Below, piece by piece: positions 2,878 through 43,282 of a stretch of 64,000 nucleotides of DNA (positions within the stretch are counted from its first letter, which is position 1; each line of letters starts with the position of its first letter). The position numbers and the translations under genes are program-made. The stretch spans positions 159,993-223,992 of the forward strand of contig JAZSOG010000025.1 in assembly GCA_045536845.1 (NCBI GenBank). The letters are read 5' to 3'. The notes under the pieces are model-generated. The model saw only the letters and a list, made by a program, of their open reading frames with translations, was not told the DNA's origin and ran no database searches. Source of the stretch: Kiritimatiellia bacterium. GTDB taxonomy: Bacteria; Verrucomicrobiota; Kiritimatiellia; RFP12; UBA1067.

Positions 2878-3398
2878 AAATCGTACTTGCAAGTGGCAGC
2901 CCACGGCGGGCGAAAATACTAAAGGACCTCGGCGTTGACTTCGAGGTCGTCAAGACAGACGCGCCTGAAGTCTCCTATCCCGCAGACCCCGAGCGGACGG
3001 TCAGAGAGAACGCGCTTGCAAAGGGCGCGGCGCTTCTTGGACGCAAGGGCGTCTTGAGCGCCGACACAATCGTGTGGTTCTCTGATCGCATCTACGGCAA
3101 GCCGCGCGATCTCGAAGAGGCGAAGGAGTTTCTGCGCGAGCTCGCAGGCAAAGTTCACACAGTCTTTACAGGAGTTGCGTTCGATGGCGAAGTGAAGGTC
3201 GTCCGCAGCGACGTAAAGTTCCGCGAACTTTCCGAGGCGACGATAGAGGAGTATGTCGCGCGCGTGAGGCCGACCGACCGCGCGGGCGCGTACGACATAG
3301 ACGAGTCTGGCGACTTGATCGTCGAGTCGTACTCTGGCAGCTATGAGAACATAATGGGGCTCCCCGTCGAGCCGCTCAAGGAATGGGGGATCGCATGA
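2874..3398 (+). CDS. maf: Maf-like nucleoside triphosphate pyrophosphatase
   Basis: MKIVLASGSPRRAKIL...VFTGVAF...ESGDLIVESYSGSYENIMGLP Maf signature. Confidence 0.9.
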   Translation: MKIVLASGSPRRAKILKDLGVDFEVVKTDAPEVSYPADPERTVRENALAKGAALLGRKGVLSADTIVWFSDRIYGKPRDLEEAKEFLRELAGKVHTVFTGVAFDGEVKVVRSDVKFRELSEATIEEYVARVRPTDRAGAYDIDESGDLIVESYSGSYENIMGLPVEPLKEWGIA

Positions 3399-7636: not shown

Positions 7637-9295
7637 ATGAACGACGACAAATATACTGAAAAAGGATTCTTCCGCAGGCTTTTTGAAATGTTTCAAGGCC
7701 TTAGGATGCCTCGAGATACGCGCGAATACAAACTTGCGCGAATTGAACTCCAGCGCCTCTCGGCGCCTCTCACGGCGATTGTCGTGCCGACTTTGTTTGG
7801 CATAGTTCTCTGTGTCGTGACGGCTATTTCGTCGCAGAGGACAGAATTGCCGCCCGTGGACATTGCAGATCCAATTGTGGATGAGCCGCCAATCGAGGAT
7901 CCGCCTGTGCCGGAACCAGAAGAGATTCCCCTGCCGGATGAACCCATTGAGTTTACTGTCGACACTCCGGATCCTGCGCCTGTCACGCCGCTGCCGCCGT
8001 CGCCCATCCAGACGCGCTCGACGGATATCTCCGTTAAGCCTGCGCCGATGGACGCCGTGCAGAACATAAAATCACCCGTGACTTTTAAAAGCATAAACGG
8101 AGGCCGCACCCCAGGAACGATCGGCATAGCGACGAGCGGGCGCGACAGCGGCGGAGGCGATCCGCATACCGAGGCGGCGGTCATGAAGGTCCTCTGGTGG
8201 CTCAAGGCGCATCAGAACACCGACGGCAGCTGGGGGACTGCGAACAAGGTCGCGAACACCGGCTTTGCGATTCTTACATATCTCGCGCACGGCGAATATC
8301 CAGGAAGTCCGTCGCCGTACAAGCGCGACTTTGGGCCCACCGTGCAGATGGCGCTCGACTACCTGATCGGCTGCATCCACACTGGCGCGGACAACGTGCC
8401 GCACTTCACGGGGACTGACGGCAACGAATACAGCTTCCTCATCGCGACCTACGCGCTCTGCGAGGCGTATGGCATGACGAAGAACCCGAACTGCAAGGAG
8501 GCGGCAGAGCAGTGCCTCTACCGCATCGTCGAGAACCAGTCCTCTACCGGCGGCTGGGACTACAAGCTGAACAGGAACTCGACGCGAGACGACCTCTCCT
8601 TCGCGGGATGGGCGATTCAGGCGCTCAAGGCCGGCAAGATGGCGGGTCTTCACCATGAAGGCCTCCAGACCGCGATCAACAAGGCGGTCAACTGCCTCAG
8701 GCGGCGTGGATACTCGAAGTCCGGCGGCTTTACATATACGCCGACGGCAAACAACAACGGCGGCAACACCGGTCTCGCCGGAGTGGGTGCGCTCGCGATG
8801 CAGTTCCTCGGGCACGGCACCGACCCCGAGGCGCTGAACGCGCTTGACGTGATGCGCGACTGGATGCCCGCGTTCGAGGCGGGCAAGGTCGCCGCGAAGA
8901 GCCCCGGCGGGAGCCCTCAGTACTACTGCTACTACGCGACGCAGTGCAAGTACCAGGCGGGCATGAAGGCGGGCGCGACGAAGCAAGACGTCGATTCGTG
9001 GGTGAAGTGGAATCTCGCAATGAGAAAGCTCTACCCTGCGTCGATCATCGACCTCCCCGAAAAGGTCGCGGATGTCAACGGGAAGGGGCACGCCCAGGGG
9101 TACTACCAAAACAACGACGCGCACTCGACCCGTCCCTACATGGACACGTGCCTCGCGGCTCTCCAGCTGATGGTCTACTACCGCTATCTTCCGACGACGT
9201 CGACGAAGGCGGGCGCGGACGATGCTGGCGAAAACGCCGACGGCGTCAATGGCTTCGACAGCTCCAAGGACGTCCCGGTCGTCGTATCCTTGTGA
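7637..9295 (+). CDS. prenyltransferase/squalene-oxidase-repeat (terpenoid cyclase-like alpha/alpha toroid) membrane-anchored protein
   Basis: N-terminal TM helix (LTAIVVPTLFGIVLCVVTAI), Pro-rich linker (PPVDIADPIVDEPPIEDPPVPEPEEIPLPDEP), then repeats with QNTDGSWG / NQSSTGGWDY motifs. Confidence 0.7.
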   Translation: MNDDKYTEKGFFRRLFEMFQGLRMPRDTREYKLARIELQRLSAPLTAIVVPTLFGIVLCVVTAISSQRTELPPVDIADPIVDEPPIEDPPVPEPEEIPLPDEPIEFTVDTPDPAPVTPLPPSPIQTRSTDISVKPAPMDAVQNIKSPVTFKSINGGRTPGTIGIATSGRDSGGGDPHTEAAVMKVLWWLKAHQNTDGSWGTANKVANTGFAILTYLAHGEYPGSPSPYKRDFGPTVQMALDYLIGCIHTGADNVPHFTGTDGNEYSFLIATYALCEAYGMTKNPNCKEAAEQCLYRIVENQSSTGGWDYKLNRNSTRDDLSFAGWAIQALKAGKMAGLHHEGLQTAINKAVNCLRRRGYSKSGGFTYTPTANNNGGNTGLAGVGALAMQFLGHGTDPEALNALDVMRDWMPAFEAGKVAAKSPGGSPQYYCYYATQCKYQAGMKAGATKQDVDSWVKWNLAMRKLYPASIIDLPEKVADVNGKGHAQGYYQNNDAHSTRPYMDTCLAALQLMVYYRYLPTTSTKAGADDAGENADGVNGFDSSKDVPVVVSL

Positions 9296-9296
9296 G

Positions 9297-9309
9297 AAAA
9301 TGGTATAAT
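9297..9309 (+). promoter_or_regulatory. extended -10 promoter AAAATGGTATAAT, leaderless (ATG 9317)
   Basis: TGgTATAAT ending 7 nt before ATG. Confidence 0.5.
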
Positions 9310-9316
9310 TAGGGCG

Positions 9317-10141
9317 ATGGGTGATGAGTTCACATGGAACGACCGCTACGCTGGCGACGAGGCCTGGACCGAATGGTTTGAAATCTGTTCGGTCGACCTC
9401 TGTCGCCCCGAGTTCGCCGCTCGGCTGCGCGAGCAGGTTTCCGCTGCGCTCTACTCTCGCCTCGCCCGCGCCGGAATCTCGCGCGAAGACGCGGGTGGCG
9501 AAGACCCTGTCGCCTTCTTCGACTCATACTTCAAGCTCAAGGGCTCGCGCGAGAAGAAGAAACCGCTTAAGTCCTACTTCGCCCACCGCATCAAGGACGA
9601 GGGCCTCGAGATGGTCGACTTCGTCTGCGGCACTCTTTTCGGCTCCGGCTCGGGCCGCGTCCGCGACATCGCCCTCGACTGGATATCGGTCATCAAGGGC
9701 TGGAAGCCGCGCACTGTCGCAGGAGAGGACGGCCGACGCCGTCTCGTGTGGGAGAACGCGGGGGACGCTAATCTCGCGGCCGTCGAGCAGTCGGAAGGGC
9801 CGCAGTCGCTTGACTTCCTCGATGAAGAGCCGCTTCGCGCAGAGTCCGAGCGGGTCATCGCCGCAGTCGCGCAGCGCGCGCGCCTTGCGCAAGACGCCGC
9901 CTCGCTTCTCGTCTACGCCACATCTCACGACATCTCGCTCACCGAGCCCTGCATACTCGCCGCGCTTGGCGCCGGGAAGTCGCAGGCTTACGCCTTGCGG
10001 GAGAAGGTCGTCGCGGCGCTTGAGCGGGAGCTTCGCGAAGTCGAGCTTGCGGACACGCCTCTTTTCGCGCGCGTCCTCGTCGCTGCAGCCGCGGCGCATT
10101 TGCCGCGCGACCTTCAAAAAGAACTGGGGGTGGAAGAATGA
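9317..10141 (+). CDS. hypothetical protein; C-terminus resembles sigma-70 region-4 HTH (speculative)
   Basis: 274 aa, leaderless start directly after TGGTATAAT; C-terminal DISLTEPCILAALGAGKSQAYALREKVVAALERELRE HTH-like; overlaps next gene by ATGA. Confidence 0.5.
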   Translation: MGDEFTWNDRYAGDEAWTEWFEICSVDLCRPEFAARLREQVSAALYSRLARAGISREDAGGEDPVAFFDSYFKLKGSREKKKPLKSYFAHRIKDEGLEMVDFVCGTLFGSGSGRVRDIALDWISVIKGWKPRTVAGEDGRRRLVWENAGDANLAAVEQSEGPQSLDFLDEEPLRAESERVIAAVAQRARLAQDAASLLVYATSHDISLTEPCILAALGAGKSQAYALREKVVAALERELREVELADTPLFARVLVAAAAAHLPRDLQKELGVEE

Positions 10142-11394
10142 ACGCCGCGTTCCAGAATGAGTGGCAGCTCTACCGGCGCGGCGCACAGCTTCCGCCGATC
10201 GTCGGCCTCGAGCCGAAGACCGACTCCGAGTTCGATGCCGATGTTGCCGTTGGGGAGGTAAGGATATTTGCCGACACGAACCGCCCGCTCGTCGCGCTCG
10301 TCGTCGAAGACCGCCGTCTTTCTGGGTGGCGCATCGTCCCGGTCTCGCCGTTCTGCGCGCCAGCTTCCGACCGCGAGCTGATGGTTGGCGAGCGAGTCTT
10401 CCAGCTTTGGAACGCGACGGTCGTCTCGCGCCGTTTCGCGTCGCGCAGCTGGAGAGTCGATGCGATTTCCGATTCCGATCTCGCGGAGATCCGCGGCGCA
10501 ATTGCCGCGGCGAATCCCGGGCGCGTCACTGCGGGCGACGGCGTGCAGGCGAAGTACGAGCGCGAGTTTCTCGTCGGAGAGGGGACGCTCGTTCCGTTCG
10601 CGGAGCCGCGCGCGGCGGATTTGCCGCGCTTTGGGTGGATGCAGATTTCGCTCAAGATCGCGGCGTCGCTCGCGCTGTGCCTTGTGGCGTGGTATGTCCT
10701 GATGATGGACTCCGGTCGCCAGATCGTCCGAAACTGGCGCGGGGGCTTCCATGCCGTCGACATCGCGCAGGAAGACGCGACCATCGATCTTGTCGACGCG
10801 CGCGAGGTGCGCGAGGCGCCGACGGAAATCGCGGAAGTAAATATCGACTTTACGCCGCCCTCGGTAACATGGTACGGTCCTGCGCCAGAAGTCTTCCGTC
10901 CCGCGAAGTTCGCGGACGTGAAGGGGCCGAAGGTGCCGGAGAGTATCAAGAAGTTCACGCTCGACCGCGACAGGTTCATTTCACCGATTTCCGCGCCGAT
11001 GGAAGTCGTGTTCCTTTCGGGTGGCGAACGGAAGTCTCACGCCCCTGCGCAGAGCGGTGAGCTCCGGTATGCGGCTGCAATCGCGCCGCTCGCGGAGCCT
11101 CCGAAGGTGACGTGCAAGCTTGTGAACGACACGCGGAGCGGGCTCTGCGTCGACAAGATACTGCGCATTGAAGGAGAAGTCGCGGAAGGAGCGAAGATCA
11201 CCGTGATGTTCGACTGGGATGTCGTCGAGGGATATGGCAAACTGTCCAGCACTGCCTCTGACTGCAAGGTCTGGATCAATTACGAGCTTATGGCGTTCTC
11301 GGGCAAAACGATTTCCCCCGAGTCTGTTTTCGTCACGCTCATCTGGCCTTCGAAGGATGGCGACGAGCGTACGCCCGTTCCTGTCGGCCAGTGA
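10138..11394 (+). CDS. hypothetical single-pass membrane protein (anti-sigma-like topology)
   Basis: 418 aa; cytoplasmic N-domain, TM helix ISLKIAASLALCLVAWYVLMM, ~230-aa C-terminal domain; translationally coupled to upstream gene. Confidence 0.5.
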   Translation: MNAAFQNEWQLYRRGAQLPPIVGLEPKTDSEFDADVAVGEVRIFADTNRPLVALVVEDRRLSGWRIVPVSPFCAPASDRELMVGERVFQLWNATVVSRRFASRSWRVDAISDSDLAEIRGAIAAANPGRVTAGDGVQAKYEREFLVGEGTLVPFAEPRAADLPRFGWMQISLKIAASLALCLVAWYVLMMDSGRQIVRNWRGGFHAVDIAQEDATIDLVDAREVREAPTEIAEVNIDFTPPSVTWYGPAPEVFRPAKFADVKGPKVPESIKKFTLDRDRFISPISAPMEVVFLSGGERKSHAPAQSGELRYAAAIAPLAEPPKVTCKLVNDTRSGLCVDKILRIEGEVAEGAKITVMFDWDVVEGYGKLSSTASDCKVWINYELMAFSGKTISPESVFVTLIWPSKDGDERTPVPVGQ

Positions 11395-19064: not shown

Positions 19065-19740
19065 CCTCACGCAGCTAAGGATGCTCGAGGATCTCGACGG
19101 GCTTCTTCTCGTCGACAAGCCCGCCGGGATCGCGTTCTCGTCCGTCGTAAAGACGGTGAAGCGCAAGTTCAACCTCGTGAAGGTCGGTCACGGCGGCTCC
19201 TTGGACGCGATGGCCTCCGGGCTTTTCGTGGTTCTCATCGGCAGCGCGAACAAGTTTGTCGGCGACATAATGGGCGCAGACCGCTCGTACACGGGAACGA
19301 TGAAGTTCGGAGAGACGACAGATACGGGTGACCGCTATGGAAGGCCGATTCCTCTTCCTGGACGCGTGATGAAGCCGGAAGAGGCGAAGGGTGATCTCTT
19401 CCAGGCCGAGCCGCGCTTCTGCGCCGTCCGCCGCGAGGGCTCGGCGCAGTACGACATCGCCGACACGGGCGAGCACACTCAGTTTCTCGCGCATGTCTAC
19501 CGCTTCGAGGTCGACGAGAAGGATGCGTCTTCGGGAGAGTCCGCCTTTTCGCTCGTCGCCTCGAAGGGCGTGATAGTGCGCGCGCTCGCGCAGGACCTCG
19601 GCGCGACGCTCATGTCGCTCAGGCGCACGAAGATCGGCAAGCTTTCCGTTGACGACGCGATACCGTTTGACAAGCTCCTCGAAACAGACGTCGGGAACCT
19701 CCCGTCATGCGTAGTGCCGATTTCCAGAGCGTTGCGGTAG
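19057..19740 (+). CDS. truB: tRNA pseudouridine(55) synthase
   Basis: GLLLVDKPAGIAFSSVV...KVGHGGSLDAMASGLFVVLIG TruB signature; overlaps rbfA end. Confidence 0.9.
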   Translation: MANLTQLRMLEDLDGLLLVDKPAGIAFSSVVKTVKRKFNLVKVGHGGSLDAMASGLFVVLIGSANKFVGDIMGADRSYTGTMKFGETTDTGDRYGRPIPLPGRVMKPEEAKGDLFQAEPRFCAVRREGSAQYDIADTGEHTQFLAHVYRFEVDEKDASSGESAFSLVASKGVIVRALAQDLGATLMSLRRTKIGKLSVDDAIPFDKLLETDVGNLPSCVVPISRALR

Positions 19741-20543
19741 GCTTCTTCGACGGCGTCCACTTGGGGCACCAGTCCATACTGAAGGGCGCCGAGGCGGCGC
19801 TTACTTTCCGCAATCACCCGCTGGCCGTCCTTTCGCCCGACAGGGCGCCGCGGCTTTTGATGGACGCCGAGGAACGCCTTGCCGCGATCCGCTCGTGCGG
19901 CGTGGGCGAAGTCGTTGCGCTCAATTTCACGCCGGAGTTTGCTCGGCTTTCTCCAGAGGAGTTTCTTGCGATGGCGGGGATCACGCGCAAGGTAAAAGTC
20001 AGGTGCGGCGACAACTGGCGCTTCGGGCGCGGCGGAGCTGCCGACGCGACTTGGCTTCGCGCGCACGGGTATTCGGTCGAAGTCATCCCTGCCGTGGAGT
20101 ATCGCGGCGAAGCCGTTTCCTCGACGCGCATCCGCGCCGCGCTCGAGCGTGGCGAGGTCGAGGACGCAGGGGCGATGCTTGGGCGTCCGTTCGAGGTGCG
20201 CGGCGAGGTCTTCGCGGGGAAGGGCGAGGGTTCGCGTCTTGGCTATCCAACGGTGAACTTAAAGCCGAGTTCGCTCAACATTCGGCTCCCGCTCGGCGTC
20301 TATGCGGCCGAGGTGGGCGGAGTGTGCGCAGTTGCAAATTATGGCCTCGCGCCGACGTTCGGCGAGCGTGCGTGGGAAGAGCCGGTCGTGGAGGTTCATT
20401 TTCTGCGGCAGGCGCCTGATGTGCAGGGCGATGGCTTCGCGGAAGTGAAGCTTCTCCGCTTCCTGCGCCCGGAGCGCAGGTTTGATTCTCTCGATGCGCT
20501 TAAATCACAGATCGCGCGCGACTGCGCAGCGGCATTGGCGTGA
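19707..20543 (+). CDS. ribF: bifunctional riboflavin kinase/FMN adenylyltransferase
   Basis: VAVGFFDGVHLGHQSIL FAD-synthetase N-domain, C-terminal riboflavin kinase domain (GYPTVNL). Confidence 0.9.
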   Translation: MRSADFQSVAVGFFDGVHLGHQSILKGAEAALTFRNHPLAVLSPDRAPRLLMDAEERLAAIRSCGVGEVVALNFTPEFARLSPEEFLAMAGITRKVKVRCGDNWRFGRGGAADATWLRAHGYSVEVIPAVEYRGEAVSSTRIRAALERGEVEDAGAMLGRPFEVRGEVFAGKGEGSRLGYPTVNLKPSSLNIRLPLGVYAAEVGGVCAVANYGLAPTFGERAWEEPVVEVHFLRQAPDVQGDGFAEVKLLRFLRPERRFDSLDALKSQIARDCAAALA

Positions 20544-20629
20544 CGCTGCTACGGTGGTTTGCGGCTACATGACCTTAATCGACTCTAGCTGTCTCTTACT
20601 ATATTTCGTCCGCACCGTAATCTCATTTC

Positions 20630-20759
20630 GCTGTGCTTGATTTCAGCGTGGCAGTTTCGCTATAATACCCCCAACGCCGTTGATAATGAGGAATGTGGAA
20701 GAAAACATCGGAATGGGCGACAAAGACAAAAAGAGCAACACCAAAGGGGTGTCTCCCCA
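20630..20759 (+). repeat. island boundary repeat R1 (promoter TTGATT-18-TATAAT + conserved leader + GGGGTGTCTCCCC hairpin)
   Basis: TTGATTTCAGCGTGGCAGTTTCGCTATAATAC...AATGAGGAATGTGGAAGAAAACATCGGAATGG...AAAGGGGTGTCTCCCCA. Confidence 0.7.
20637..20666 (+). promoter_or_regulatory. sigma70-type promoter in repeat R1 (TTGATT-18 nt-TATAAT)
   Basis: -35 TTGATT 20637-20642, -10 TATAAT 20661-20666; identical arrangement in R2 (26189-26218). Confidence 0.55.
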
Positions 20760-21642
20760 GCGGTCCAAAGTCGGTGCGCGGCGCTGGTATGGCGCGGCGC
20801 GAGGGCTGGCAATCATTCTCCCATTCGAATTGGTTTTGCTGCCGTTCATGATCATGGTGTCTGCCTATCTTCCGCTTGCCATCGTGATTGGTGCATCGCT
20901 TGTTGGCTTGGCGGTTCCCGGCCGGCCACATGTTGGAAAGAGCGCGTGGAGGACTGCTCGAGAGTCGATGGTGTGGATTCTTGCCGCGCTTAATATCGTA
21001 GTCGTTGGGGCCTGTTTTTATTTCACTACCGGTTTCTTCGGTATTGCCTTAAACTCGGGTTTCGAGTCGGCTGTCAAGGATGCAGACCGTATAGTTGTGC
21101 GTGACGGCGGCGGAAGATGGAGTTCCAACCCGGAGAAGGATCATGTGCTCTTTGAGATAACGAACAAGGCGGAGATTGCGACATTCAACGAAATGTTCAG
21201 GTTTTGCGAGCGAGAATTGTTGCAATGCAAATGTAGCGGATATCCTGGCATCGACTGGTGGCGCGACGGACAGCGCATCGCGGTGGCGGGGATTCACCAT
21301 CGCCGTAAGCTCCGCGTTACCGGCATAAGCGGAGACTTGTGTTTCACCGGCGAATCAGGGTGCCGTGTCCAGGATTGGCTCGAAACGCATTGCGGGCTTA
21401 CGCAGGGCGACAATTCTCCGCGGTATCGTCGATGCATGATGGCTCGTGCGATAATTGAGAGTGAGGCGCTTGGTCGGGCGAAGACCAACGAAGGCAGGAA
21501 GCCGACGCTTGACGAGATTCGCGATGAGTTCAAGAAGAACGGGAAAGAGTTTCCGAAGTGTCCGGCCGGCGGCGAATATTCGCTTACCTTCGGCGAGGAT
21601 GGAACGCCGATGGTCAAGTGCACGGTTCCTCGCCATGATTGA
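20686..21642 (+). CDS. island membrane protein A (4 TM + Cys-rich soluble C-domain), N-terminal conserved leader MRNVEENIG..KGVSP
   Basis: Preceded by repeat R1 promoter; TM segments LAIILPFELVLLPFMIMVSAYLPLAIVIGASLVGLAV and MVWILAALNIVVVGACFYFTTGFFGIAL; no known domain. Confidence 0.5.
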   Translation: MRNVEENIGMGDKDKKSNTKGVSPQRSKVGARRWYGAARGLAIILPFELVLLPFMIMVSAYLPLAIVIGASLVGLAVPGRPHVGKSAWRTARESMVWILAALNIVVVGACFYFTTGFFGIALNSGFESAVKDADRIVVRDGGGRWSSNPEKDHVLFEITNKAEIATFNEMFRFCERELLQCKCSGYPGIDWWRDGQRIAVAGIHHRRKLRVTGISGDLCFTGESGCRVQDWLETHCGLTQGDNSPRYRRCMMARAIIESEALGRAKTNEGRKPTLDEIRDEFKKNGKEFPKCPAGGEYSLTFGEDGTPMVKCTVPRHD

Positions 21643-21655
21643 CAATCGGATGCGG

Positions 21656-21680
21656 CGCGGCGGATTTGCCGCGCTTTGCG
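21656..21680 (+). terminator. GC hairpin + T-tract (intrinsic terminator-like) after island gene A
   Basis: CGCGGC-GGATTT-GCCGCG CTTTGCG; a related hairpin GCGGC-GCATTTG-GCCGC occurs at 26169-26184 after gene E. Confidence 0.4.
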
Positions 21681-21690
21681 TCATGGGGAT

Positions 21691-21702
21691 TTGTGATATA
21701 AT
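21691..21702 (+). promoter_or_regulatory. island cassette promoter TTTGTGATATAAT (copy 1)
   Basis: GGATTTGTGATATAATACGGTGCATGATGAAACTGCGCG; ~40-nt block repeated at 24893-24935. Confidence 0.5.
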
Positions 21703-21747
21703 ACGGTGCATGATGAAACTGCGCGCGAGCACATGAGGTCTGGTGCT

Positions 21748-22770
21748 ATGAATGATTTGAAAAAGCCTTTGCCGGTCAAGATCGTCGAGACTCTGGGCTG
21801 GATATATGTCATGCTGTCAGTCCTGTTGTTTATACTGGCGATTGTGAATGCGTGTCGAGGTAGCGGCGAGTCGTTGTCCGGCATTCTCTTTGCCGTGCTG
21901 TTTGGACTTTGCCTGCTGTCGCTGCCAGTTGGCATGGTTTTCGCGCTGCGGCTCGGTAGGCGCACGTGGTTCCTTGTGCCGAATACGATTGTCATGAGTC
22001 TTTGTCTGATTGGCGCAATAGAAGCGCTTTGCAGCTCCGCGACGGCATTGCCATTCGTGCTTTTGGCGTTGCTTTTTGGAATCGGGCCGATGGTCCTTCT
22101 CTTTTTGCCGTCGTCAAGTCGGTGGTTCAATGAAATGTCCGGCGATGACTCTCCCAGCCCTTTCGGATGTGCCGGTATAGTTGTAGTAGGAGTGCTCTGG
22201 TTGGCTTTCGTCGGACCGTGTTTGTCCGAGATGTACTTTAGTAAGATAGGGATGCAAAATGCTTTGTCCCACGCGATGGCAGGGCGCGGACGAGCATTGT
22301 GGGGCTGCATTGTTTTCAACCATTCACGCGAATCTGGAAAAGATTGGGTTGACGCCTCTTCTTGCACGAACTCGACGCAGTTTGTCCAGGCGCTGTGGGC
22401 GAAGCTTGGCGAAGACAAAGCCCCATGCCCTTATCCAGACAGTTGGTGCATCGCCGTAAATCCTCCTGACAATGACAAATTCCCTGTAATGGTCACGGCG
22501 AACATCGATCCGCGCGAACTGCTGTGTTCTCAGGACAAGGACCAGCCCTTGAAGCTGACATGTCCGAAGGAGTGGGGCGGCACCTGCTTCAAGTTTTGCG
22601 AGAAGGCGGGTGTGATTGTCTACAAAGGAGGAGCCTCGCAAATTTTTAGAAATAAGTATGTGCGTCCAAGTTTGATATTCAATGACGGCATACCAAAGCC
22701 CGGCCCCGACACCTATTTCCTGACCCCGACCGGCCGCGTGGACATCTGTACCGCGGGTTCAAGAAACTAA
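21748..22770 (+). CDS. island membrane protein B (5 TM + Cys-rich C-domain)
   Basis: Start chosen at MNDLKK after GAGG RBS; five hydrophobic helices; C-terminal domain with 12 Cys; preceded by TTTGTGATATAATACG promoter module. Confidence 0.5.
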   Translation: MNDLKKPLPVKIVETLGWIYVMLSVLLFILAIVNACRGSGESLSGILFAVLFGLCLLSLPVGMVFALRLGRRTWFLVPNTIVMSLCLIGAIEALCSSATALPFVLLALLFGIGPMVLLFLPSSSRWFNEMSGDDSPSPFGCAGIVVVGVLWLAFVGPCLSEMYFSKIGMQNALSHAMAGRGRALWGCIVFNHSRESGKDWVDASSCTNSTQFVQALWAKLGEDKAPCPYPDSWCIAVNPPDNDKFPVMVTANIDPRELLCSQDKDQPLKLTCPKEWGGTCFKFCEKAGVIVYKGGASQIFRNKYVRPSLIFNDGIPKPGPDTYFLTPTGRVDICTAGSRN

Positions 22771-23336
22771 TGAGCGAAGTTCGGGAGAGTCTGCTTTGCA
22801 AAGCGGGCCGGCTGGTCCGTCGTAGGCCAATTTTGTGTGTTGCGTCGACGTTGGTCTTAGCAGTGGTCATTGTGGTCGTGGCTTTTGTAGCTTACGCCGG
22901 CTATTTTGTGTATCGGTTGCATGTTTTGCATGGCCAACGTGTCGAGAAGACATTTGTTGCTTTGGAAGGCTACGGGGGTGCGGATGCCTTTTATGAAAAA
23001 TGCAAGAAGATTGCTTCGCGCTTGCCGTTTGACGAGGGCATGTCATTTACGGGCATGCGATTGCGGCAAGGCGATTCTTCGACAGAAAATGGGAGATCGA
23101 ATGACGTGGGTTGCATATGGCGGGAGCTGTCGGAATTGGATCCTCAGTATGTGGTGAAGGAATCCGGCAGCAAATGTCTTGTGATTCAGGTGTCGGGCGG
23201 GTTCATGCACATGGGGCTTGTTGTCGCGTTAGGCGACGACTATCTCGGCACAGACAAGTTCCCGGCGGTGTGGGATGCGTCTGGCGATTGGAGCTGGAAA
23301 AGACTGGGCAAATATGTGTATTGGTACGAGGAGTGA
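22770..23336 (+). CDS. island membrane-anchored hypothetical protein C
   Basis: N-terminal TM ILCVASTLVLAVVIVVVAFVAYAGYFVY; start overlaps upstream stop (TAATG). Confidence 0.45.
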   Translation: MSEVRESLLCKAGRLVRRRPILCVASTLVLAVVIVVVAFVAYAGYFVYRLHVLHGQRVEKTFVALEGYGGADAFYEKCKKIASRLPFDEGMSFTGMRLRQGDSSTENGRSNDVGCIWRELSELDPQYVVKESGSKCLVIQVSGGFMHMGLVVALGDDYLGTDKFPAVWDASGDWSWKRLGKYVYWYEE

Positions 23337-23362
23337 CTTTCATTATTGACATGAGGCTGGCT

Positions 23363-23400
23363 GGGACATTGGTGGGGACATTGGGACATTGGGGACATTG
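23363..23400 (+). repeat. microsatellite (GGGACATTG[G])x4
   Basis: ctGGGACATTGGtGGGGACATTGGGACATTGGGGACATTGGgg. Confidence 0.8.
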
Positions 23401-23412
23401 GGGAGACACCCC
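23400..23412 (-). repeat. REP-like hairpin GGGGTGTCTCCCC (minus orientation) upstream of transposase
   Basis: Plus strand reads GGGGAGACACCCC; other copies at 20746-20758(+), 24414-24426(+), 24704-24715(+, 12/13), 26290-26302(+). Confidence 0.5.
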
Positions 23413-23792
23413 ATTTTCGTTTCGCTTTTCAGCGCCGATTTTGCCCATTGTCGCCGCTTATCGCAATTTCCCCAGGTTTCCCCCTTGCCTTTTCTCGCCC
23501 ATTATGCGATAATCCTTCCGTTCCTCGGAATTGAACACCGTTGGCGGACGGATACAAGGGGGAACCATGGAGAGTCTGCGGGTTGAAACGCCAGTAGTCC
23601 TTGGTCATCGTGCCGAGGGTGTTGATCGGCGGAACCGCAGACACCGCGTCGCGCGAGGGCTGGCTGGCCCGCAGGCCGCCGGAAGGCGGTGCACAACGCG
23701 CGCGGACTGGCCCGGCATGGCCCATTCCAGATTGCCGAACGCATGGCCGCGTGGCCGTGCGCATTCGGAAACTGCAATCGGAGGGCCACCAA

Positions 23793-24620
23793 ATGGCAAG
23801 AACGGCAAGAGTCAAGAGCGTTGGCGAGGGAACGGCGTACTATCACCTCGTTTCCCGCGCCAGCAACAAACAATTCCTATTTCGGAAATCAGCGGCGAAA
23901 GACCGCCTTGCGGAACTCGCTCGGAAGGCGGCCGAGTTCAGCGGGATCAAGCTTGTCGCATTCGCCGTGATGGACAACCATTACCACATACTCTGCAAGG
24001 TTACGCGCAGCTGCGACCCGGTTCCGCAGGAAGAGGTTGTCCGGCGTGTGGGCATCCTCAAGGGGACAAAGGCTGCTGAGTTTCTTGCGGAGCACTGGAG
24101 GGAGCTTGCGGCTGCGGGTTTTGACGCGACGCTCCAGTCCGAGCTCGGCCGCTACCGCGCACGCATGAACGACATAAGCGAGTTCATGAAGACGATGAAG
24201 GAGCTCTACGCGATATGGTACAACCGCGAGTACGACTACAGCGGCAGCATCTGGAGCGGTGTGTTCAAGTCGACGATGGTCGAGGGAGGCCGATACCTTG
24301 AGTACTGCCGCCGGTACATCATGATGAACCCCGTGCGTGCCGGGATTGTGTCGCAGGTGAAGGACTATCGCTGGGTTTGTGGCGCAGAACCCGAAGAAAC
24401 GGAAGGCTTCGCGGGGTGTCTCCCCGAATGGAGCGTGACGGCGAGGGTGGCGCAGGTCGGGGCGGGGAAGATCTTCGGCAGCGAGGCGTTCGTGCGGAAG
24501 TGGATAGACGGGCTCGGCGACAAGTTCCCCGCGGCGCGGACGGCGGCGCACGCCGTGGGGCGCATCGGCTTTTCGTCGCATGGCTGGCGGCTGGCGAAGA
24601 GGGACGAAAGGGCGGCATAG
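23793..24620 (+). CDS. IS200-like HuH (Y1) transposase / REP-associated tyrosine transposase-like
   Basis: HuH motif MDNHYHILCKV; downstream IWSGVFKSTMVEGGRYLEYCRRYIMMNPVRAGIV typical of PF01797-like transposases; 275 aa. Confidence 0.65.
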   Translation: MARTARVKSVGEGTAYYHLVSRASNKQFLFRKSAAKDRLAELARKAAEFSGIKLVAFAVMDNHYHILCKVTRSCDPVPQEEVVRRVGILKGTKAAEFLAEHWRELAAAGFDATLQSELGRYRARMNDISEFMKTMKELYAIWYNREYDYSGSIWSGVFKSTMVEGGRYLEYCRRYIMMNPVRAGIVSQVKDYRWVCGAEPEETEGFAGCLPEWSVTARVAQVGAGKIFGSEAFVRKWIDGLGDKFPAARTAAHAVGRIGFSSHGWRLAKRDERAA

Positions 24621-24703
24621 GCGGAATGCGGAAGAAATGAGACGATGCGCAGGGGAAAAGTGAGGGAAAGGAGCGGAAAGAGAATGAAAATAGGCGCTGC
24701 CTG

Positions 24704-24715
24704 TGGGGTGTCTCC
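24704..24715 (+). repeat. REP-like hairpin copy (GGGGTGTCTCCC) downstream of transposase, inverted relative to upstream copy
   Basis: Lies 84 nt after transposase stop; forms inverted pair with copy at 23400-23412. Confidence 0.45.
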
Positions 24716-24898
24716 CTTGGGCCACTACACTCGTTGCGCTTCCTTGGCCCGTCGTGGCGGCAAGGCTCGGCGGGCATCGCGAGGCGCGCGCCGGAGTCTA
24801 CTGCTGCGGCAGCAGGTCTGTCTTTAGGATGGCATTGCTACGCTTTAGATCGAACGCCAGCGTGCGCCCCAAGACTTCGCCTATAGCTTCCTTGGAAT

Positions 24899-24910
24899 TT
24901 GTGATATAAT
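24899..24910 (+). promoter_or_regulatory. island cassette promoter TTTGTGATATAAT (copy 2), 7 nt before ATG of gene D
   Basis: GGAATTTGTGATATAATACGACGCATGAGGAAAATGCGCG. Confidence 0.5.
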
Positions 24911-24917
24911 ACGACGC

Positions 24918-25397
24918 ATGAGGAAAATGCGCGAAAGCTTGTGGAATCGGGCTCGTTGCCTTTTGGGCTTGATTGCTGTCTGCGCCATGCCTTTTTTCAT
25001 TGTCGGCCTTCTGTTTGCAGATGAACTGTCGTTTTGGAGAATGGCGTTGGCTTATGCGATAGCGGTATGTTCGCGGCAGGGGTTCAAGTTGGCGTTTAAT
25101 GGACGAAGGAAGGTGTGGCCTATAGTTGCTGCATGTCTGTTGCTGCCCATTGCCATTATCTGTGCGGCATTTGTCGCGTGGCGTCCAGAGCATTGGGCGG
25201 TTTGCGGGTGTGGTCAGCCGTTGGATTACATCGTTCCGGCGCAGTTCTATCCTGGCCCCATTGTCTCGGCGGGAATATTGATTATCGCGTCGCTATGGTG
25301 CGAGCATGACGCGTTTCGCGGGCTTGGTGCAAAGATTCTTTTCTACGCGGCTTGTATGGTGATGGCTTGGTTTGCGTTGAATTTTGCCGAGCAATGA
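24918..25397 (+). CDS. island membrane protein D (4 TM)
   Basis: Leaderless start 7 nt after TTTGTGATATAAT; four hydrophobic helices; no known domain. Confidence 0.45.
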   Translation: MRKMRESLWNRARCLLGLIAVCAMPFFIVGLLFADELSFWRMALAYAIAVCSRQGFKLAFNGRRKVWPIVAACLLLPIAIICAAFVAWRPEHWAVCGCGQPLDYIVPAQFYPGPIVSAGILIIASLWCEHDAFRGLGAKILFYAACMVMAWFALNFAEQ

Positions 25398-25435
25398 AAG
25401 ACACCTTCAGTGACATGCCCAGCGGAACTTAGCAG

Positions 25436-26110
25436 ATGAAAAGAAGAAAGCAGAGATGGTGTTGGCGAATGGACATGGATGTCTTGCGCTGTGTTTTGTT
25501 CTTTTCATTCCTTGTCTTGTTGCTTGCGGCGCTGGGATTGTTGGTAAATGGCATAGTGATTGTGGTGAGGATGTGTCTGCGCGGTTCTGCATTGGGCTTT
25601 GTACTCTTGGCGGCGGTAATCTTGCCCGTCGCTGGTTTTTTCATTGTGCGACGTATTCTGAGAAATCGGGAGCTCAATTCGCTGTTGTCGCGGGGTGTCG
25701 ACTTCGGGTTGAAGGCCGAGTCGCTTCAGATGGTTGACGAGATCATCGAGAAGCACGGGAGGCGCTGTCGCCGGACGGTGGCATTAAAGGCGGAGATCGC
25801 GCCGATGGTTCGATCAATCACCAGTCGCTACAATTCGATTCGCCTCGGGAAGAAGACGGTTTTTAACAGTCATGATCTGCGAACGGGCGTGTCGGGCGGC
25901 TTCAAGGGACGCCCGGCTGACAGTTATTTTGCAATTGCATATGAAGACGAGTCTTGCTATCTTGTCAAATGTTCGCCTTCGGATGAAGCAATATACTACG
26001 ACGAGTACGAATGGATGCGCGAGCCGATTCCATATGCGAGCGACATCCGCCACTATATAGCTTTGCGCTATCAGGAGCTGATGGGGCCTGACACCCGAAA
26101 CCGCGCTTGA
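25436..26110 (+). CDS. island membrane protein E (2 TM + soluble C-domain)
   Basis: TM helices VLFFSFLVLLLAALGLLVNGIVIVV and FVLLAAVILPVAGFFIV; start possibly 25469. Confidence 0.45.
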   Translation: MKRRKQRWCWRMDMDVLRCVLFFSFLVLLLAALGLLVNGIVIVVRMCLRGSALGFVLLAAVILPVAGFFIVRRILRNRELNSLLSRGVDFGLKAESLQMVDEIIEKHGRRCRRTVALKAEIAPMVRSITSRYNSIRLGKKTVFNSHDLRTGVSGGFKGRPADSYFAIAYEDESCYLVKCSPSDEAIYYDEYEWMREPIPYASDIRHYIALRYQELMGPDTRNRA

Positions 26111-26185
26111 TTCCCTTGTGTCGGTTTTGCTGAACCAACTACGTCTTCGGGTGAGAAGCCTAATAGTCGCGGCGCATTTGCCGCG

Positions 26186-26303
26186 CACTTGATTTCAGCG
26201 TAGCAGTTTCGCTATAATACGCGCACCACCTTGAAATGAGGAATGTGAAAGAAAACATCGGAATTGACGATAAAAAGTGCAACGCCAAAGGGGTGTCTCC
26301 CCA
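26186..26303 (+). repeat. island boundary repeat R2 (copy of R1)
   Basis: TTGATTTCAGCGTAGCAGTTTCGCTATAATAC...AATGAGGAATGTGAAAGAAAACATCGGAATTG...AAAGGGGTGTCTCCCCA. Confidence 0.7.
26189..26218 (+). promoter_or_regulatory. sigma70-type promoter in repeat R2
   Basis: TTGATT 26189-26194, TATAAT 26213-26218. Confidence 0.55.
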
Positions 26304-26388
26304 TTTGATCCAAGAGTCCGCGCCAGAGGCGGACGAATATGATGACTGGGACACATGGGATCAGCGCTTCAAGGCTTTGCTGGGCTGA
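26236..26388 (+). CDS. 50-aa ORF carrying the conserved island leader MRNVKENIGIDDKKCNAKGVSP
   Basis: Driven by repeat R2 promoter; first 23 codons ~85% identical at nt level to start of protein A; acidic Trp-rich tail DEYDDWDTWDQRF. Confidence 0.3.
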   Translation: MRNVKENIGIDDKKCNAKGVSPHLIQESAPEADEYDDWDTWDQRFKALLG

Positions 26389-26542
26389 TTTCGCTCGGAA
26401 CAGCCGGGGACACGATAGGCCCGTTTTTCGCCTGTTCGCCGTAGTTTTGGCGAAGGTGGATGTCTTTCGTGTATTTCGTGGTTAATCCTCCGCGGCGCAT
26501 TCCCCCAAAAAATTGTGAAACGCCAAGTCGCATTAGTGTGGA

Positions 26543-26554
26543 TTATGCTATAAT
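26543..26554 (+). promoter_or_regulatory. -10 element ATGCTATAAT, near-leaderless phosphohexomutase start 26564
   Basis: TATAAT ends 9 nt before ATG. Confidence 0.4.
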
Positions 26555-26563
26555 TATCTCGAT

Positions 26564-27937
26564 ATGGGATTCTTCAAGGCATACGACATGCGCGGCACCT
26601 TTGGTGTCGACTTCGACCTCGATACAGTCTACAAGGTGGGGCTTGCCCTGCCGAAAGTAGTCAAGGGAAAACGCTGGCTCGTGGGGCGCGACTGCCGCAC
26701 GACGAGCGACGCAGTTCACGATGCGCTCGTGAAGGGGCTTTCCGAGTCTGGCGCGGGAGTGAGCGACTTGGGGCACTGCACGACGCCGATGGTCTACTAC
26801 TTCACCGCCGCAGACGGCTTCGACGGCAGCGTGATGATCACCGCCTCGCACAATCCGCCGACGGACAACGGCTTAAAAGTTTCAAAGGCGACAGCGCTCC
26901 CCGTCGGCTACGCGAACGGTCTTAACGAAGTTGAGCGACTGGTCGGCGAAATGCAGTCGACGGCCGACGGCCGAAGGCCTTCGGTGAAGGATCTTCCCGA
27001 TGCACTTTCGCGCTACATCGCCTGGCAAAAAGGCCGTGTCAGCACCGCAGCGCTTTCTGGGCTAAAGTTCGCCGTGGACTGCTCGAACGGAATGTCCTCG
27101 CTTTTCGTACGCGAGATGTTCCCGGATGCGGTGCTGCTCAACGACACTCCCGACGGGACCTTCCCCGCCCATTCCCCGAATCCGCTCAAGGCCGAAGCGC
27201 GAGAGCAGATTGCCAAGGTTGTGCGCGAGAAGGGGCTTGACTGCGGCGTCATATTCGACGGCGACGCAGACCGCGCGATGTTCGTCGACGAGCGCGGCGA
27301 ATTCGTCCAGCCTGACTATTTGATTCCAATTGTGGCGAGAGCCACGATGGGAAGTGAAGAGTTAAGAGTTAAGAGTGAAGAGTTGGGGAAGGCCAAGATA
27401 ATTCATGATGTAAGGACATCGCGCGGCGCGATAGAGACGTTGCGCGAGGACGGCTTCGAGCCGGAGATGGTTCCTGTTGGCCATGCCTTTGCAAAGCCGA
27501 TCCTTCGCAAGATTGGCGCTCTTTGCGGCGGTGAGCTTGCGGGGCACTACTACTTTTCGGAGTTCTTCGGGTGTGACTCCGGTCTTCTCGCGGCGACGCG
27601 CATCCTCGGCGAGATCGCGAAGGCGAAGCAAGCGGGAAAGACTTTCTCAGAGATGATGAAGCCGATAGTCTCGCGCTACGCCAACTCGGGCGAAATCAAT
27701 TTCAAAGTTGATGATAAAGAAGCGGCCATCGAGCGCGTTCTCGCTGTCGCGAAGTCGCTTGGCGAAGAAACCGGCCGAAGCGAGATAGACGGCTATCGCC
27801 TTGAATACCGCGACGGCTGGATTTCCGTTCGCAAGTCCAACACCGAGCCGTATCTCCGCCTTCTCGTCGAATGTCGGACAAGGGAAATGCTCGACAATCG
27901 GGTTGGCCGTCTCTCTGACGCAATTGAGGGGAAGTGA
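26564..27937 (+). CDS. phosphomannomutase/phosphoglucomutase family protein
   Basis: Active-site TASHNPPTDNG; 4-domain alpha-D-phosphohexomutase layout; contains heptanucleotide repeat insertion (GSEELRVKSEELGK). Confidence 0.9.
   Translation: MGFFKAYDMRGTFGVDFDLDTVYKVGLALPKVVKGKRWLVGRDCRTTSDAVHDALVKGLSESGAGVSDLGHCTTPMVYYFTAADGFDGSVMITASHNPPTDNGLKVSKATALPVGYANGLNEVERLVGEMQSTADGRRPSVKDLPDALSRYIAWQKGRVSTAALSGLKFAVDCSNGMSSLFVREMFPDAVLLNDTPDGTFPAHSPNPLKAEAREQIAKVVREKGLDCGVIFDGDADRAMFVDERGEFVQPDYLIPIVARATMGSEELRVKSEELGKAKIIHDVRTSRGAIETLREDGFEPEMVPVGHAFAKPILRKIGALCGGELAGHYYFSEFFGCDSGLLAATRILGEIAKAKQAGKTFSEMMKPIVSRYANSGEINFKVDDKEAAIERVLAVAKSLGEETGRSEIDGYRLEYRDGWISVRKSNTEPYLRLLVECRTREMLDNRVGRLSDAIEGK
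27354..27381 (+). repeat. heptanucleotide tandem repeat (T[G/T]AAGAG)x4 inside phosphohexomutase gene
   Basis: TGAAGAGTTAAGAGTTAAGAGTGAAGAG encoding SEELRVKSEEL. Confidence 0.7.
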
Positions 27938-28806: not shown

Positions 28807-28875
28807 CGGTGATGCATTGGGGAGAGACCCTGTTTGAAGTTGCTAATTTGCACTAAACTTGATAATTTTGTTAAG

Positions 28876-28932
28876 TTATAATTTTTCTGTTGAGTGTTTG
28901 TGCGCATATATGCTAAAATAAGTGCGCACATA
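28876..28932 (+). promoter_or_regulatory. AT-rich vapBC promoter with paired palindromic boxes (putative antitoxin operator)
   Basis: TTATAAT -10-like at 28876-28882; TTGTGCGCATAT (28899-28910) and AGTGCGCACATA (28921-28932) share self-complementary TGCGCA core; RBS AGGAGG before ATG 28943. Confidence 0.4.
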
Positions 28933-28942
28933 AGGAGGAAGA

Positions 28943-29194
28943 ATGAATATAACTTTGGCAGCGCCGCCCAATGTCATCCAGAATGTTCGGTGTTGGGCTG
29001 AAGAGCAGGGGACAAGTCTCAACCAGTATATTCGCGATTTGCTGATTGCGAAGGATCGCGAGATTCGTCTTGAGCGCAAGTCCCTTGCTGACGAGTTCTA
29101 TTCTTTTGCGATGGCGAACTCTATCGAGATGGAGCCTGGATACAAGTATAGCCGCGTTGATGCCGCCGAGCGGTCGTTGGAGTGCGACAAATGA
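28943..29194 (+). CDS. vapB: antitoxin of VapBC-type toxin-antitoxin module
   Basis: 83-aa ORF immediately upstream of and overlapping PIN-domain gene; AT-rich promoter with palindromic TGTGCGCA boxes upstream. Confidence 0.6.
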   Translation: MNITLAAPPNVIQNVRCWAEEQGTSLNQYIRDLLIAKDREIRLERKSLADEFYSFAMANSIEMEPGYKYSRVDAAERSLECDK

Positions 29195-43236: not shown

Positions 43237-43282
43237 AAGCGCAAATTTTGCGTAAAATTCGCACTTGAAAGCTGAGACACAT

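Follow-up and report, generated by a model that had tools for sequence, protein, structure and literature searches.

A dispersed promoter-leader element in a hypervariable membrane-protein locus of rumen Kiritimatiellae and its possible link to a REP/RAYT-like transposase

How does one promoter with one short leader come to stand in front of many unrelated genes? The question is raised by a segment of about 6 kb that lies between ribF and a phosphohexomutase gene (PGM) in a Kiritimatiellia bacterium (GenBank assembly GCA_045536845.1, contig JAZSOG010000025.1). We analysed this segment, the island, within 64,000 nucleotides of the contig (positions 159,993 to 223,992, forward strand), hereafter called the window; coordinates are those of the window unless another locus is named. 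A preliminary description made from the letters alone had read the segment as a low-GC cassette island bounded by two direct repeats, each with a promoter, a translated leader and a stem-loop. We are confident of the descriptive part of our answer, which is that the segment represents, in rumen Kiritimatiellae, a hypervariable locus of accessory genes and that the repeat, here called R, is a dispersed promoter-leader element. With more reserve, we lean towards the view that R and a transposase encoded beside it form a system like that of repetitive extragenic palindromes (REPs) and REP-associated tyrosine transposases (RAYTs), in which the repeat would be both a portable promoter-leader and a recombination point for accessory membrane-protein genes.

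The island (20544-26563) has a GC content of 0.549 compared with 0.605 for the remainder of the window (about 60% for the whole 64 kb), and windowed GC placed it at the minimum among all 6-kb windows, about 3 standard deviations under the mean. It holds six genes, all on the + strand, of which five encode predicted membrane proteins and one a Y1 HUH transposase. GC at third codon positions (GC3) is 0.575-0.627 in the five cassette open reading frames (ORFs) and 0.81 ± 0.06 in 14 other genes of the window. Homologues of the window proteins bear Kiritimatiellae names, and the related loci come from rumen and gut metagenome-assembled genomes (MAGs).

The two direct repeats are real. R1 (20636-20759) and R2 (26188-26303) are about 88% identical with two indels of 2 and 6 nt (rounded nhmmer E values, 1e-37 and 9e-37), and their similarity begins abruptly at CTTGATTTC and ends just past GGGGTGTCTCCCCA. 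Both contain the promoter TTGATT-18-TATAAT, which is the best promoter-like match of the region (10/12 positions). Both also contain the leader ORF that had been described as conserved and translated, but the substitutions between R1 and R2, read off the alignment, are mostly non-synonymous, and therefore conservation acts on the DNA and not on the peptide. A search pattern taken from the leader and the adjoining motif (AACNNNAAAGGGGTGTCTCCCCA) found 68 copies in 66 metagenome contigs, whose readable sample origins are rumen or gut. We built a consensus and an nhmmer profile from 32 copies with different downstream flanks. Column identity among them rises from about 0.4-0.6 to at least 0.9 at CTTGATTTC and drops again after CCCCATTTGATC. 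The consensus is 124 nt long with a GC content of 0.47, and its parts stand in the order -35 and -10 boxes, short 5' untranslated region (UTR), ATG, leader and hairpin motif. The leader is open, Lys-rich and about 22 codons long, typically M(R/K)NVKENI(G/E)MGDKKSNAKGVSPHLI. The motif can be written as AAAGGGGTGTCTCCCCATTTGATC, and in canonical copies it forms an 8-bp bulged stem, CAAAGGGG/CCCC(A)TTTG. On the opposite strand the motif and its T-rich flank match a terminator pattern in a terminator scan. Some copies lack the promoter half and keep the 3' half. R1 and R2 are thus not the ends of the island, as had been proposed; each is a copy of a dispersed element that has its own, sharply defined ends. 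Both ends of R carry TTGAT (5' CTTGATTTC, 3' ATTTGATC; 26188-26193 and 26305-26309 in the window).

Rfam returned no family at gathering score in the whole window, and its E-value mode over the island gave only a chance snoRNA match; R is therefore not a known riboswitch or leader. Literature searches found no such element described for Kiritimatiellae, and no REP or miniature inverted-repeat transposable element (MITE) that bears a promoter and a leader. A further candidate copy at 43265 (nhmmer E = 0.057) was rejected, as it is a generic TTGAAA-17-TATAAT promoter only.

What stands behind the leader differs from copy to copy, as the preliminary description had suspected from the window alone. 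R1 reads in frame into ORF1, and the same join is found in two other loci (L012 and L073). In L012, a 95%-identical strain fragment, a second R copy after ORF2 reads in frame into a Tat-signal metallophosphatase/metallo-beta-lactamase (MBL) protein. The place of ORF1 is taken in L013 and L059 by a 252-aa protein that begins with a related leader, MATENNNEKGVSPQRS. Altogether 30 of the 68 copies stay in frame for at least 100 codons, and the bodies that follow fall into 16 families unrelated by BLASTP. A strongly hydrophobic segment occurs within 50 residues in 13 of these 16 families, and some bodies have lipoboxes, for example MGDKKKKGNAKGVSP/HLILFLALVFLTGGC (read off the listed sequences). 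Many in-frame bodies have neither a start codon nor a charged N-region of their own; ...NAKGVSPHLILFLALVF... is an example of a leader-body junction peptide. The other copies have a leader that ends at a stop after 3-15 codons, with the following gene in a different frame. The ORF1 leader is disordered in an AlphaFold2 model, and distant members of the ORF1 family lack the GVSP leader; the leader is therefore an addition and not an ancestral part of the protein. As a practical consequence, gene callers will mis-start genes headed by R, and assemblies break at R elements.

One locus with R, L081, has features of its own. On its - strand (hairpin at 2128, reverse coordinates) R runs in frame into a transposase fragment of 45% identity, entering it in the middle (…RARMNDVSEFIKTFKELFNVWYKRER). 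L081 also has two R copies in tandem, compared with one in the window and three relatives.

These fusions bear on an explanation that needs no transposase. R could be the conserved 5' region, promoter and N-terminus, of a variable surface-protein multigene family, spread by duplication, gene conversion and RecA recombination, with the transposase a bystander in a recombination-prone island. The copies, about 90% identical over 124 nt, are similar enough for homologous recombination, and no empty site was found among the available loci. The bodies are mostly membrane proteins or lipoproteins, and R variants co-segregate with them, as with the GNAKGVSP variant and a 164-aa lipoprotein in six loci. 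Against this, the 16 body families, which include the Tat-signal phosphatase and the L081 transposase fragment, are unrelated in sequence and therefore do not form a paralogous family. The first junction between R and an unrelated gene cannot come from homologous recombination, about one third of the copies meet a stop within a few codons of the junction, and the sharp ends of R are left needing explanation. The motif is moreover kept beside diverged transposases with unrelated flanks, far from cassette islands (L119 and L121, below). We consider this account unlikely, though it deserves to be kept in view.

Comparison with relatives supported the expectation that the island varies between strains. 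Four MAG loci found in a genome scan and compared by BLASTN (L020, L021, L022 and L027) are 93-98% identical to the window in the amino-acid sequence of ribF and/or PGM, and cassette content or order differs in each. One further gene, ORF7, is needed to describe them. In relatives a 52-aa leader ORF overlaps (GTGA) the 139-codon ORF7, and the 50-aa ORF behind R2 in the window is the remnant of a 417-bp deletion. In L027, ribF is followed by R-ORF7 and then by an inverted motif and the transposase. L021 has, after ribF, an R promoter with a duplicated PGM promoter and an extra ORF, then ORF1 with an older leader and ORF2 (ORF3 is deleted), the transposase, ORF5 and ORF6, R-ORF7 and PGM. In L022 a tandem inverted motif and the transposase precede a second promoter module (P2, below) with another gene, ORF2, R-ORF7 and PGM. 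L020 carries a variant ORF2, ORF3, the transposase, ORF5, ORF6, R with a duplicated motif, ORF7 and PGM. More permutations occur in metagenome contigs L054, L066, L081, L097 and L104, and a second locus, between a metallophosphatase gene and queH, contains the same cassette families and a transposase unit of 92-94% identity.

Some side observations concern these loci. Contigs L001, L002 and L005, from the metallophosphatase-queH locus, have the same ORF1 homologue, and from the ORF2 homologue to DUF6717 they have genes of 105+482+239 aa, of 105+245+149 aa, or none. That variable stretch contained no motif at up to 2 mismatches except a degenerate copy in the ORF1 leader, and no transposase. 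In L021, the PGM promoter region of about 130 nt (…GTGGATTATGYTATAAT) is duplicated (3020-3140 and 9050-9195) and drives the extra small membrane ORF that lies between the R promoter and ORF1; the recruited modules therefore include a housekeeping promoter as well. The L021 PGM (9200-10602) aligns with the window protein, with lower identity, as two segments that overlap (residues 1-201 and 135-454), which suggests an internal duplication, a frameshift or misassembly.

The relatives also allowed us to weigh the proposal that this is an ordinary horizontally acquired island, whose direct repeats would be attL/attR-like duplications of the insertion site permitting excision of 6 kb. The lower GC, the atypical GC3 of the cassettes and the repeats near both ends are what such an island would show. 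R occurs, however, in many other loci and contexts, and Pfam and NCBIfam identified no integrase among the island ORFs. The preliminary description had suggested that excision through R1 and R2 would leave ribF next to PGM; that adjacency was seen in no relative examined, and all four keep an island. L027, with its single R beside ribF followed by ORF7 and the transposase, is a permutation and not an excision product. Neither the R pattern nor similarity to the island was found in collections of viral contigs and plasmids, and nothing points to an origin from a phage or plasmid. We regard acquisition of this kind as very improbable.

Several breakpoints between these arrangements lie at the motif or within 8 nt of it. 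R1 and R2 diverge after 20759 and 26303, and collinearity between the window and L027 stops at 20759. Similarity between the window and L021, whose ORF1 has the older, different leader, restarts at 20743. The conserved transposase unit begins at 23395 in L007, L013, L022 and L086, and the ORF7 deletion begins at 26310, 7 nt past the motif. Compared with L021, the R1-ORF1 junction resembles a join of two motif copies that share only about 17 nt, which is little homology for RecA-dependent recombination.

Such junctions could in principle be made by software, if metagenome assemblers had used a short repeat to link contigs that do not belong together. Every locus in the comparison is a metagenome contig or a MAG, and many contigs that bear the transposase or ORF2 are short, at 1-2 kb. 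On the other side, R (124 nt) is shorter than the final k-mer of 141 used in many of the assemblies and shorter than typical reads, and the same junctions recur across independent samples and assemblers (R1-ORF1 in the window, L012 and L073; R-lipoprotein in six loci), which together make chimeric assembly unlikely. The fused frames also give coherent signal peptides. We judge an artefact to be exceedingly improbable.

The transposase comes into the argument through the motif. GGGGTGTCTCCCC has five matches in the window at up to one mismatch, compared with 0.05 expected, and all lie within the island (20746+, 23400-, 24413+ in the transposase gene, 24705+ and 26290+). The stem-loop motif of the preliminary description is thus present, but the hairpin itself is weak, with a 4-bp GC stem (8 bp with the bulge in canonical copies), about -5 kcal/mol as single-stranded DNA and z of about -2. 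Three of the five matches lie in or beside the transposase gene, and a motif common to R and to the transposase flanks is a link that the earlier description had missed. The partial R copies at 23397-23443 (-) and 24655-24718 (+) form an inverted pair pointing outward around the gene. The upstream inverted copy is present beside every homologue with enough flank (L007, L013, L020-L022 and L025-L028), and the inverted-flank arrangement also occurs in L020, L021, L025 and L121. The loop differs by lineage (TGTCT, TGGCT, TGCCT, TGTCA, TCTCT) while the G4/C4 stem is constant, and the two flanking copies co-vary, as in L025, where both are GGGGTGGCTCCCC. In L119 a 71%-identical homologue lies between a GDSL lipase gene and an adh_short gene and aligns to the window in its coding region only, and it still has CTTTCGCGGGGTGTCTCCCCAC at -202 and +50; L121 is similar. 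This retention of the motif in otherwise unrelated flanks is our strongest argument, from sequence comparison, that enzyme and motif probably belong together.

The enzyme had been called an IS200-like HuH transposase. The HuH part of that assignment holds, with a Pfam Y1_Tnp match of 53 bits (gathering score 23), although this domain is common to RAYTs and IS200/IS605 enzymes and does not discriminate between them. The IS200 part does not: the best family in NCBIfam was NF047646, the REP-associated tyrosine transposase, at 56.7 bits (below its cutoff of 80), whereas the IS200 family NF033573 scored 25.2 bits (below its cutoff of 55). NH[YFI]H and RY[IV]xxNPxRAG are invariant across 16 homologues, including H63, H65 and Y175, and the Y motif of the window enzyme is RYIMMNPVRAG. 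YIxxNP marks class 2 (TnpA_REP-like) enzymes and Y[IV]ENQ the IS200/IS605 class 1 (Table 1 of PMC6006769). The JGI annotation of several homologues is RayT. A PDB sequence search with the transposase gave weak ISDra2-type matches (E about 0.01) and none to E. coli TnpA_REP. Transposase dN/dS is 0.12-0.2, indicating purifying selection, and GC3 is 0.78, which is host-like; with the invariant HuH and Tyr residues, these values make the enzyme look functional. Its dS between the window and L013, L007 and L021 is 0.12-0.29, compared with 0.19 for ribF between the window and L021, and no housekeeping gene is common to the window and L007 or L013; the values are compatible with horizontal transfer of the transposase gene and equally with its absence.

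Further observations concern the transposase gene itself. An alternative TTG start at 23601 would give a protein of 339 aa. In the stretch upstream of the ATG (23601-23792), protein-level conservation with P0133, a homologue of 62% identity, covers the 25 codons before the ATG (…AWPIPDCRTHGRVAVRIRKLQSEGHQ), so the true start may be upstream at that TTG, or the 5' UTR may be constrained. The homologue in L025 (6001-6995) has an internal duplication of about 167 nt between identical internal motif copies (6621 and 6788), an apparent rearrangement at the motif within the gene. It gives two tblastn segments (query residues 1-212 and 159-275), and the duplication may disrupt the frame.

We propose the following course of events. 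The class-2 RAYT-like transposase would bind the motif on single-stranded DNA and cut and rejoin the DNA beside it. E. coli TnpA_REP cuts and joins single-stranded DNA at REPs, and the TnpA enzymes of IS200/IS605 do so at their own ends; it is by analogy with both that we infer an action on the motif. Such action may copy R to new sites as a non-autonomous element like a REP or a palindrome-associated transposable element (PATE), and may also fuse it, at the motif, to further gene bodies. Much of the later reshuffling, across strains and across at least two loci (ribF-PGM and metallophosphatase-QueH), would then fall to homologous recombination among R copies of about 90% identity. At its new site, R would supply transcription, a start codon and a positively charged N-terminal region before a signal or transmembrane (TM) helix, and in reverse orientation the motif with its T-rich flank could act as a terminator.

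Several observations weigh against this mechanism. The enzyme is tied to the motif by co-location and co-variation only, and its cleavage and transposition activities are proposed from sequence. The hairpin is weak (about -5 kcal/mol, z about -2) and has no GT[AG]G foot such as canonical REPs carry. In length and similarity the R copies would suffice for RecA-dependent recombination, with no need of a transposase. No motif lies at the right edge (24604) of the conserved transposase unit, and the ORF7 deletion has 2-nt microhomology, so that simple slippage could explain it. Within the 64 kb there are only two full and two to three partial R copies, all in or adjoining the island. When both flanks of every R copy were searched by BLAST against all loci, no empty site emerged, only the tandem R-R in L081. 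In 21 of 40 distinct downstream contexts the leader frame holds the longest ORF nearby, a modest enrichment over the one third expected, and these contexts are partly redundant. The metagenomic origin of all comparison loci, given above, counts here as well. These are the reasons for which our preference for a REP/RAYT-like system is a cautious one.

The position of the junctions also invites comparison with an integron-like platform, in which R would be a fixed expression site, its hairpin the recombination site, and the HUH enzyme would insert promoterless, start-less ORFs site-specifically. Junctions lie 0-8 nt from the motif and in frame, bodies often begin at a hydrophobic helix and lack their own start codon, and the R1-ORF1 join of the window, set against L021, looks like recombination of two motif copies sharing about 17 nt. 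Such a platform should have one expression site per locus, whereas R occurs in many copies and places; half of the contexts are out of frame, the cassettes have no recognisable attC-like 3' site (only some are trailed by a common GC-rich terminator), and no circular or free cassettes were observed. We find such a platform improbable. A looser form, to which we give somewhat more room while still doubting it, is an HUH-driven analogue of the integron: the 3' hairpin of R would be a single-strand recombination site, where the RAYT-like enzyme would provide ORFs that have neither promoter nor start codon with both of these and with a charged leader, all carried by the portable R. In-frame N-terminal fusions would be made and exchanged in this way, and the envelope proteome of rumen Kiritimatiellae would be diversified.

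The features of the island and its neighbours are collected in Table 1.

Table 1. Coordinates of the island, its repeats and its neighbouring genes in the window.
Feature	Position	Strand	Description
ribF	19707-20543		Left neighbour of the island
R1	20636..20763	+	Full copy of the 124-nt R with promoter, leader and hairpin motif; in frame with ORF1; repeat search, R2 alignment, nhmmer E = 1.4e-37
Promoter in R1	20637..20666	+	Sigma-70-type, TTGATT-18-TATAAT; 10/12 positions match
ORF1	20686..21642	+	318 aa; disordered R-derived leader, three TM helices, alpha/beta and Cys-rich domain, pilin-like fold; Kiritimatiellae-specific family
GGGGTGTCTCCCC at R1 3' end	20746..20758	+	Codes for G-V-S-P of the ORF1 N-terminus
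Terminator-like hairpin CGCGGCGGATTTGCCGCGC	21656..21674	+	GC-rich; after ORF1; 95% identical second copy at 26168
P2 module, copy 1	21678..21730	+	Extended -10 promoter TGATATAAT and degenerate N-terminal stub MMKLRAST*; upstream of ORF2
ORF2	21748..22770	+	340 aa; 4-5 TM helices, C-terminal beta-rich domain; large, diverse Kiritimatiellae family
ORF3	22770..23336	+	188 aa, single TM helix; 98% in L020, deleted in L021
Microsatellite (GGGACATT)n	23373..23404	.	Tandem Repeats Finder (TRF)
Inverted partial R copy (3' half)	23397..23443	-	About 390 nt upstream of the transposase; nhmmer E = 9e-7, profile positions 74-120; terminator-like on the + strand
HUH Y1 transposase	23793..24620	+	275 aa; HuH motif NHYH, Y motif RYIMMNP
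Internal motif copy	24413..24425	+	In the transposase gene, other frame (G-C-L-P), variable protein segment
Degenerate partial R copy	24655..24718	+	Motif GGGGTGTCTCCCT; downstream of the transposase; nhmmer E = 0.023; kept in L020 and L021
P2 module, copy 2	24886..24938	+	Promoter and N-terminus (MRKMRES) of ORF5
ORF5	24918..25397	+	159 aa, about 4 TM helices; 99% in L020, L021 and L081
ORF6	25436..26110	+	224 aa; 2 TM helices and a soluble domain
Terminator-like hairpin	26168..26186	+	Directly upstream of R2; repeat search, terminator scan
R2	26188..26310	+	Full copy of R; canonical 3' end CCCCATTTGATC; nhmmer E = 9e-37
50-aa ORF behind R2	26236..26388	+	R leader fused to the last 26 codons of ORF7
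PGM	26564-27937		Four-domain phosphohexomutase; right neighbour of the island
Diverged solo copy of R 3' half	28816..28849	-	AGGGTCTCTCCCC variant; just past the PHP-domain gene, outside the island; nhmmer E = 0.32, weak

The five cassette proteins had been described as without recognisable domains, and they have no match in Pfam, NCBIfam or PADLOC, which argues against toxin/immunity or known defence systems. They are nonetheless real, conserved families of Kiritimatiellae, with 43 homologues for ORF1 and at least 171 for ORF2. In L104 and L070 an R copy lies upstream of ORF6, in place of ORF5. Envelope location appears to be the common theme of these proteins, and it would fit a role in surface variation.

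R is not the only reiterated module. The second promoter family and the microsatellite of the preliminary description are both present. TTTGTGATATAATACG has two exact copies, at 21692 and 24900, each with a conserved N-terminal stub, and the P2 module that it marks, a promoter with the stub M(R/M)K(L/M)R(E/A)S, recurs in 15 different contexts. The hairpin CGCGGCGGATTTGCCGCGC also trails ORF1 homologues in L059 and L079. The microsatellite is made of reiterations of CCCCAATGT, which flanks the inverted motif copy on its 3' side, and the number of its repeats differs among relatives (L007, L013, L020, L021, L022 and L027 compared). Motif modules are tandemly duplicated in L020, L022, L036, L063 and L081, with periods of 23, 24, 44 and 51 nt (L036, L020, L022 and L063). 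In the genome RUG14528, arrays of 3-5 copies of the variant AGGGTCTCTCCCC, three of them at an exact 23-nt spacing, occur in L036 (5581-5821) and L034 (5741-5821), on the same strand as a 73%-identical transposase homologue and just upstream of it. Both contigs end inside the transposase gene, which suggests at least two copies in that genome. In the window, the stretch after the solo copy (AGGGTCTCTCCCC...CAATG) is very AT-rich (28850-29100, GC about 0.49) and has promoter-like sequence, and a small ORF from 28944 (MNITLAAPPNVIQNVRCWAEEQGTSLNQYIRDLLIAKDREI...) resembles a ribbon-helix-helix or antitoxin-type protein.

The cellular role of RAYT-type HUH enzymes and their repeats is still unclear, and here the repeat has an obvious route by which to affect the cell. 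If the link between enzyme and repeat is real, it gives the enzyme a concrete activity, cutting and joining at GGGGTGTCTCCCC, and explains how surface proteins could turn over rapidly in a gut lineage that is abundant but uncultured. R would then be a repeat element that makes N-terminal protein fusions at the 5' end of genes, of which we found no description in the searchable literature. Were the integron analogue true, it would supply a cellular function for a subclass of class-2 TnpAY1 enzymes that has no known REPs or role.

How does this arrangement compare with known systems? Dispersed repeats that provide promoters or terminators include the Correia elements of Neisseria, promoter-bearing MITEs and the outward promoters of insertion sequences (IS). 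Correia elements have terminal inverted repeats, TA duplications and another transposase class, and supply neither a start codon nor a leader. Unlike those of a classical MITE, the ends of R are not inverted repeats of each other, and the direct TTGAT is the only terminal feature that they have in common. In the vsp, vlp and vsa systems of Mycoplasma and in shufflons, one promoter and N-terminus is combined with varying surface-protein bodies at a strain-variable locus. Such loci rely on site-specific invertases (tyrosine or serine) and on paralogous genes; here we found no invertase or integrase, the R, P2 and cassette modules all lie on the + strand, and the bodies are unrelated, so the shufflon analogy of the preliminary description fails. 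Its analogy with polymorphic toxin arrays fares no better: Pfam, NCBIfam and PADLOC showed no toxin, Rhs, contact-dependent inhibition (CDI) or immunity domain, and the common module is 5' and not 3'. Unlike integrons (IntI, attI/Pc, attC), the island has no integrase among its ORFs and no attC-like repeat at cassette 3' ends.

Closer in one respect are the Rickettsia palindromic elements (RPEs), which are translated in frame within many unrelated proteins (reviewed in PMC10969869). An RPE inserts internally and adds a surface loop, whereas R lies at the extreme 5' end with a promoter and start codon, and no known cognate transposase adjoins RPEs. With IS200/IS605 elements and PATEs (ISDra2, IS608) the enzyme shares the Pfam Y1_Tnp domain, the weak best PDB matches to ISDra2 TnpA and short subterminal hairpins, and in L119 the flanking motif copies are on the same strand, whereas in the window they are inverted. 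ISDra2 inserts after the pentanucleotide TTGAT (PMC2806898). TTGAT at both R ends equals that target, which may be coincidence, since the -35 box also reads TTGATT. The enzyme lacks Y[IV]ENQ as its Y motif and is about twice as long (275 aa vs about 150 aa), tnpB and omega RNA are missing, and nothing points to identical multi-copy IS units.

The nearest likeness is to the REP/RAYT systems or 'REPtrons', reportedly described by Nunvar (2010), Bertels & Rainey (2011) and Ton-Hoang (2012). Like them, the system has an HUH Y1 enzyme with the class-2 Y motif YIxxNP, a gene between inverted copies of a short palindromic motif that is also present elsewhere, and an enzyme gene with host-like codon usage that is under purifying selection. 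For subclass 2.4 in the scheme of Quentin et al. 2018 (PMC6006769), a copy of the motif is known within the enzyme gene, and for long subclasses with a C-terminal domain, such as 2.1, no associated REPs are reported. The present enzyme has a motif copy in its gene, as in subclass 2.4, and its motif copies are candidate terminators, a role that REPs can also have; unlike a typical RAYT it scores below the NCBIfam RAYT cutoff and has a long C-terminal domain like that of subclass 2.1. The repeat differs more. A canonical REP is a stable palindrome of 20-40 nt with a 5' GT[AG]G foot, whereas the motif here has a 4-8 bp stem and no GTAG, and the R unit spans 124 nt with a promoter, a start codon and an open leader. 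REPs lie 3' of genes in intergenic DNA, R at the 5' ends of genes and within coding sequence, and the copies seen here cluster in variable loci. REP families number tens to hundreds of dispersed copies per genome, with one enzyme gene for each family; for R the counts are 68 copies in 66 metagenome contigs and two full copies in the 64 kb. On this comparison the system works most like a REP/RAYT REPtron, and we file it as a variant of that kind and not as a member.

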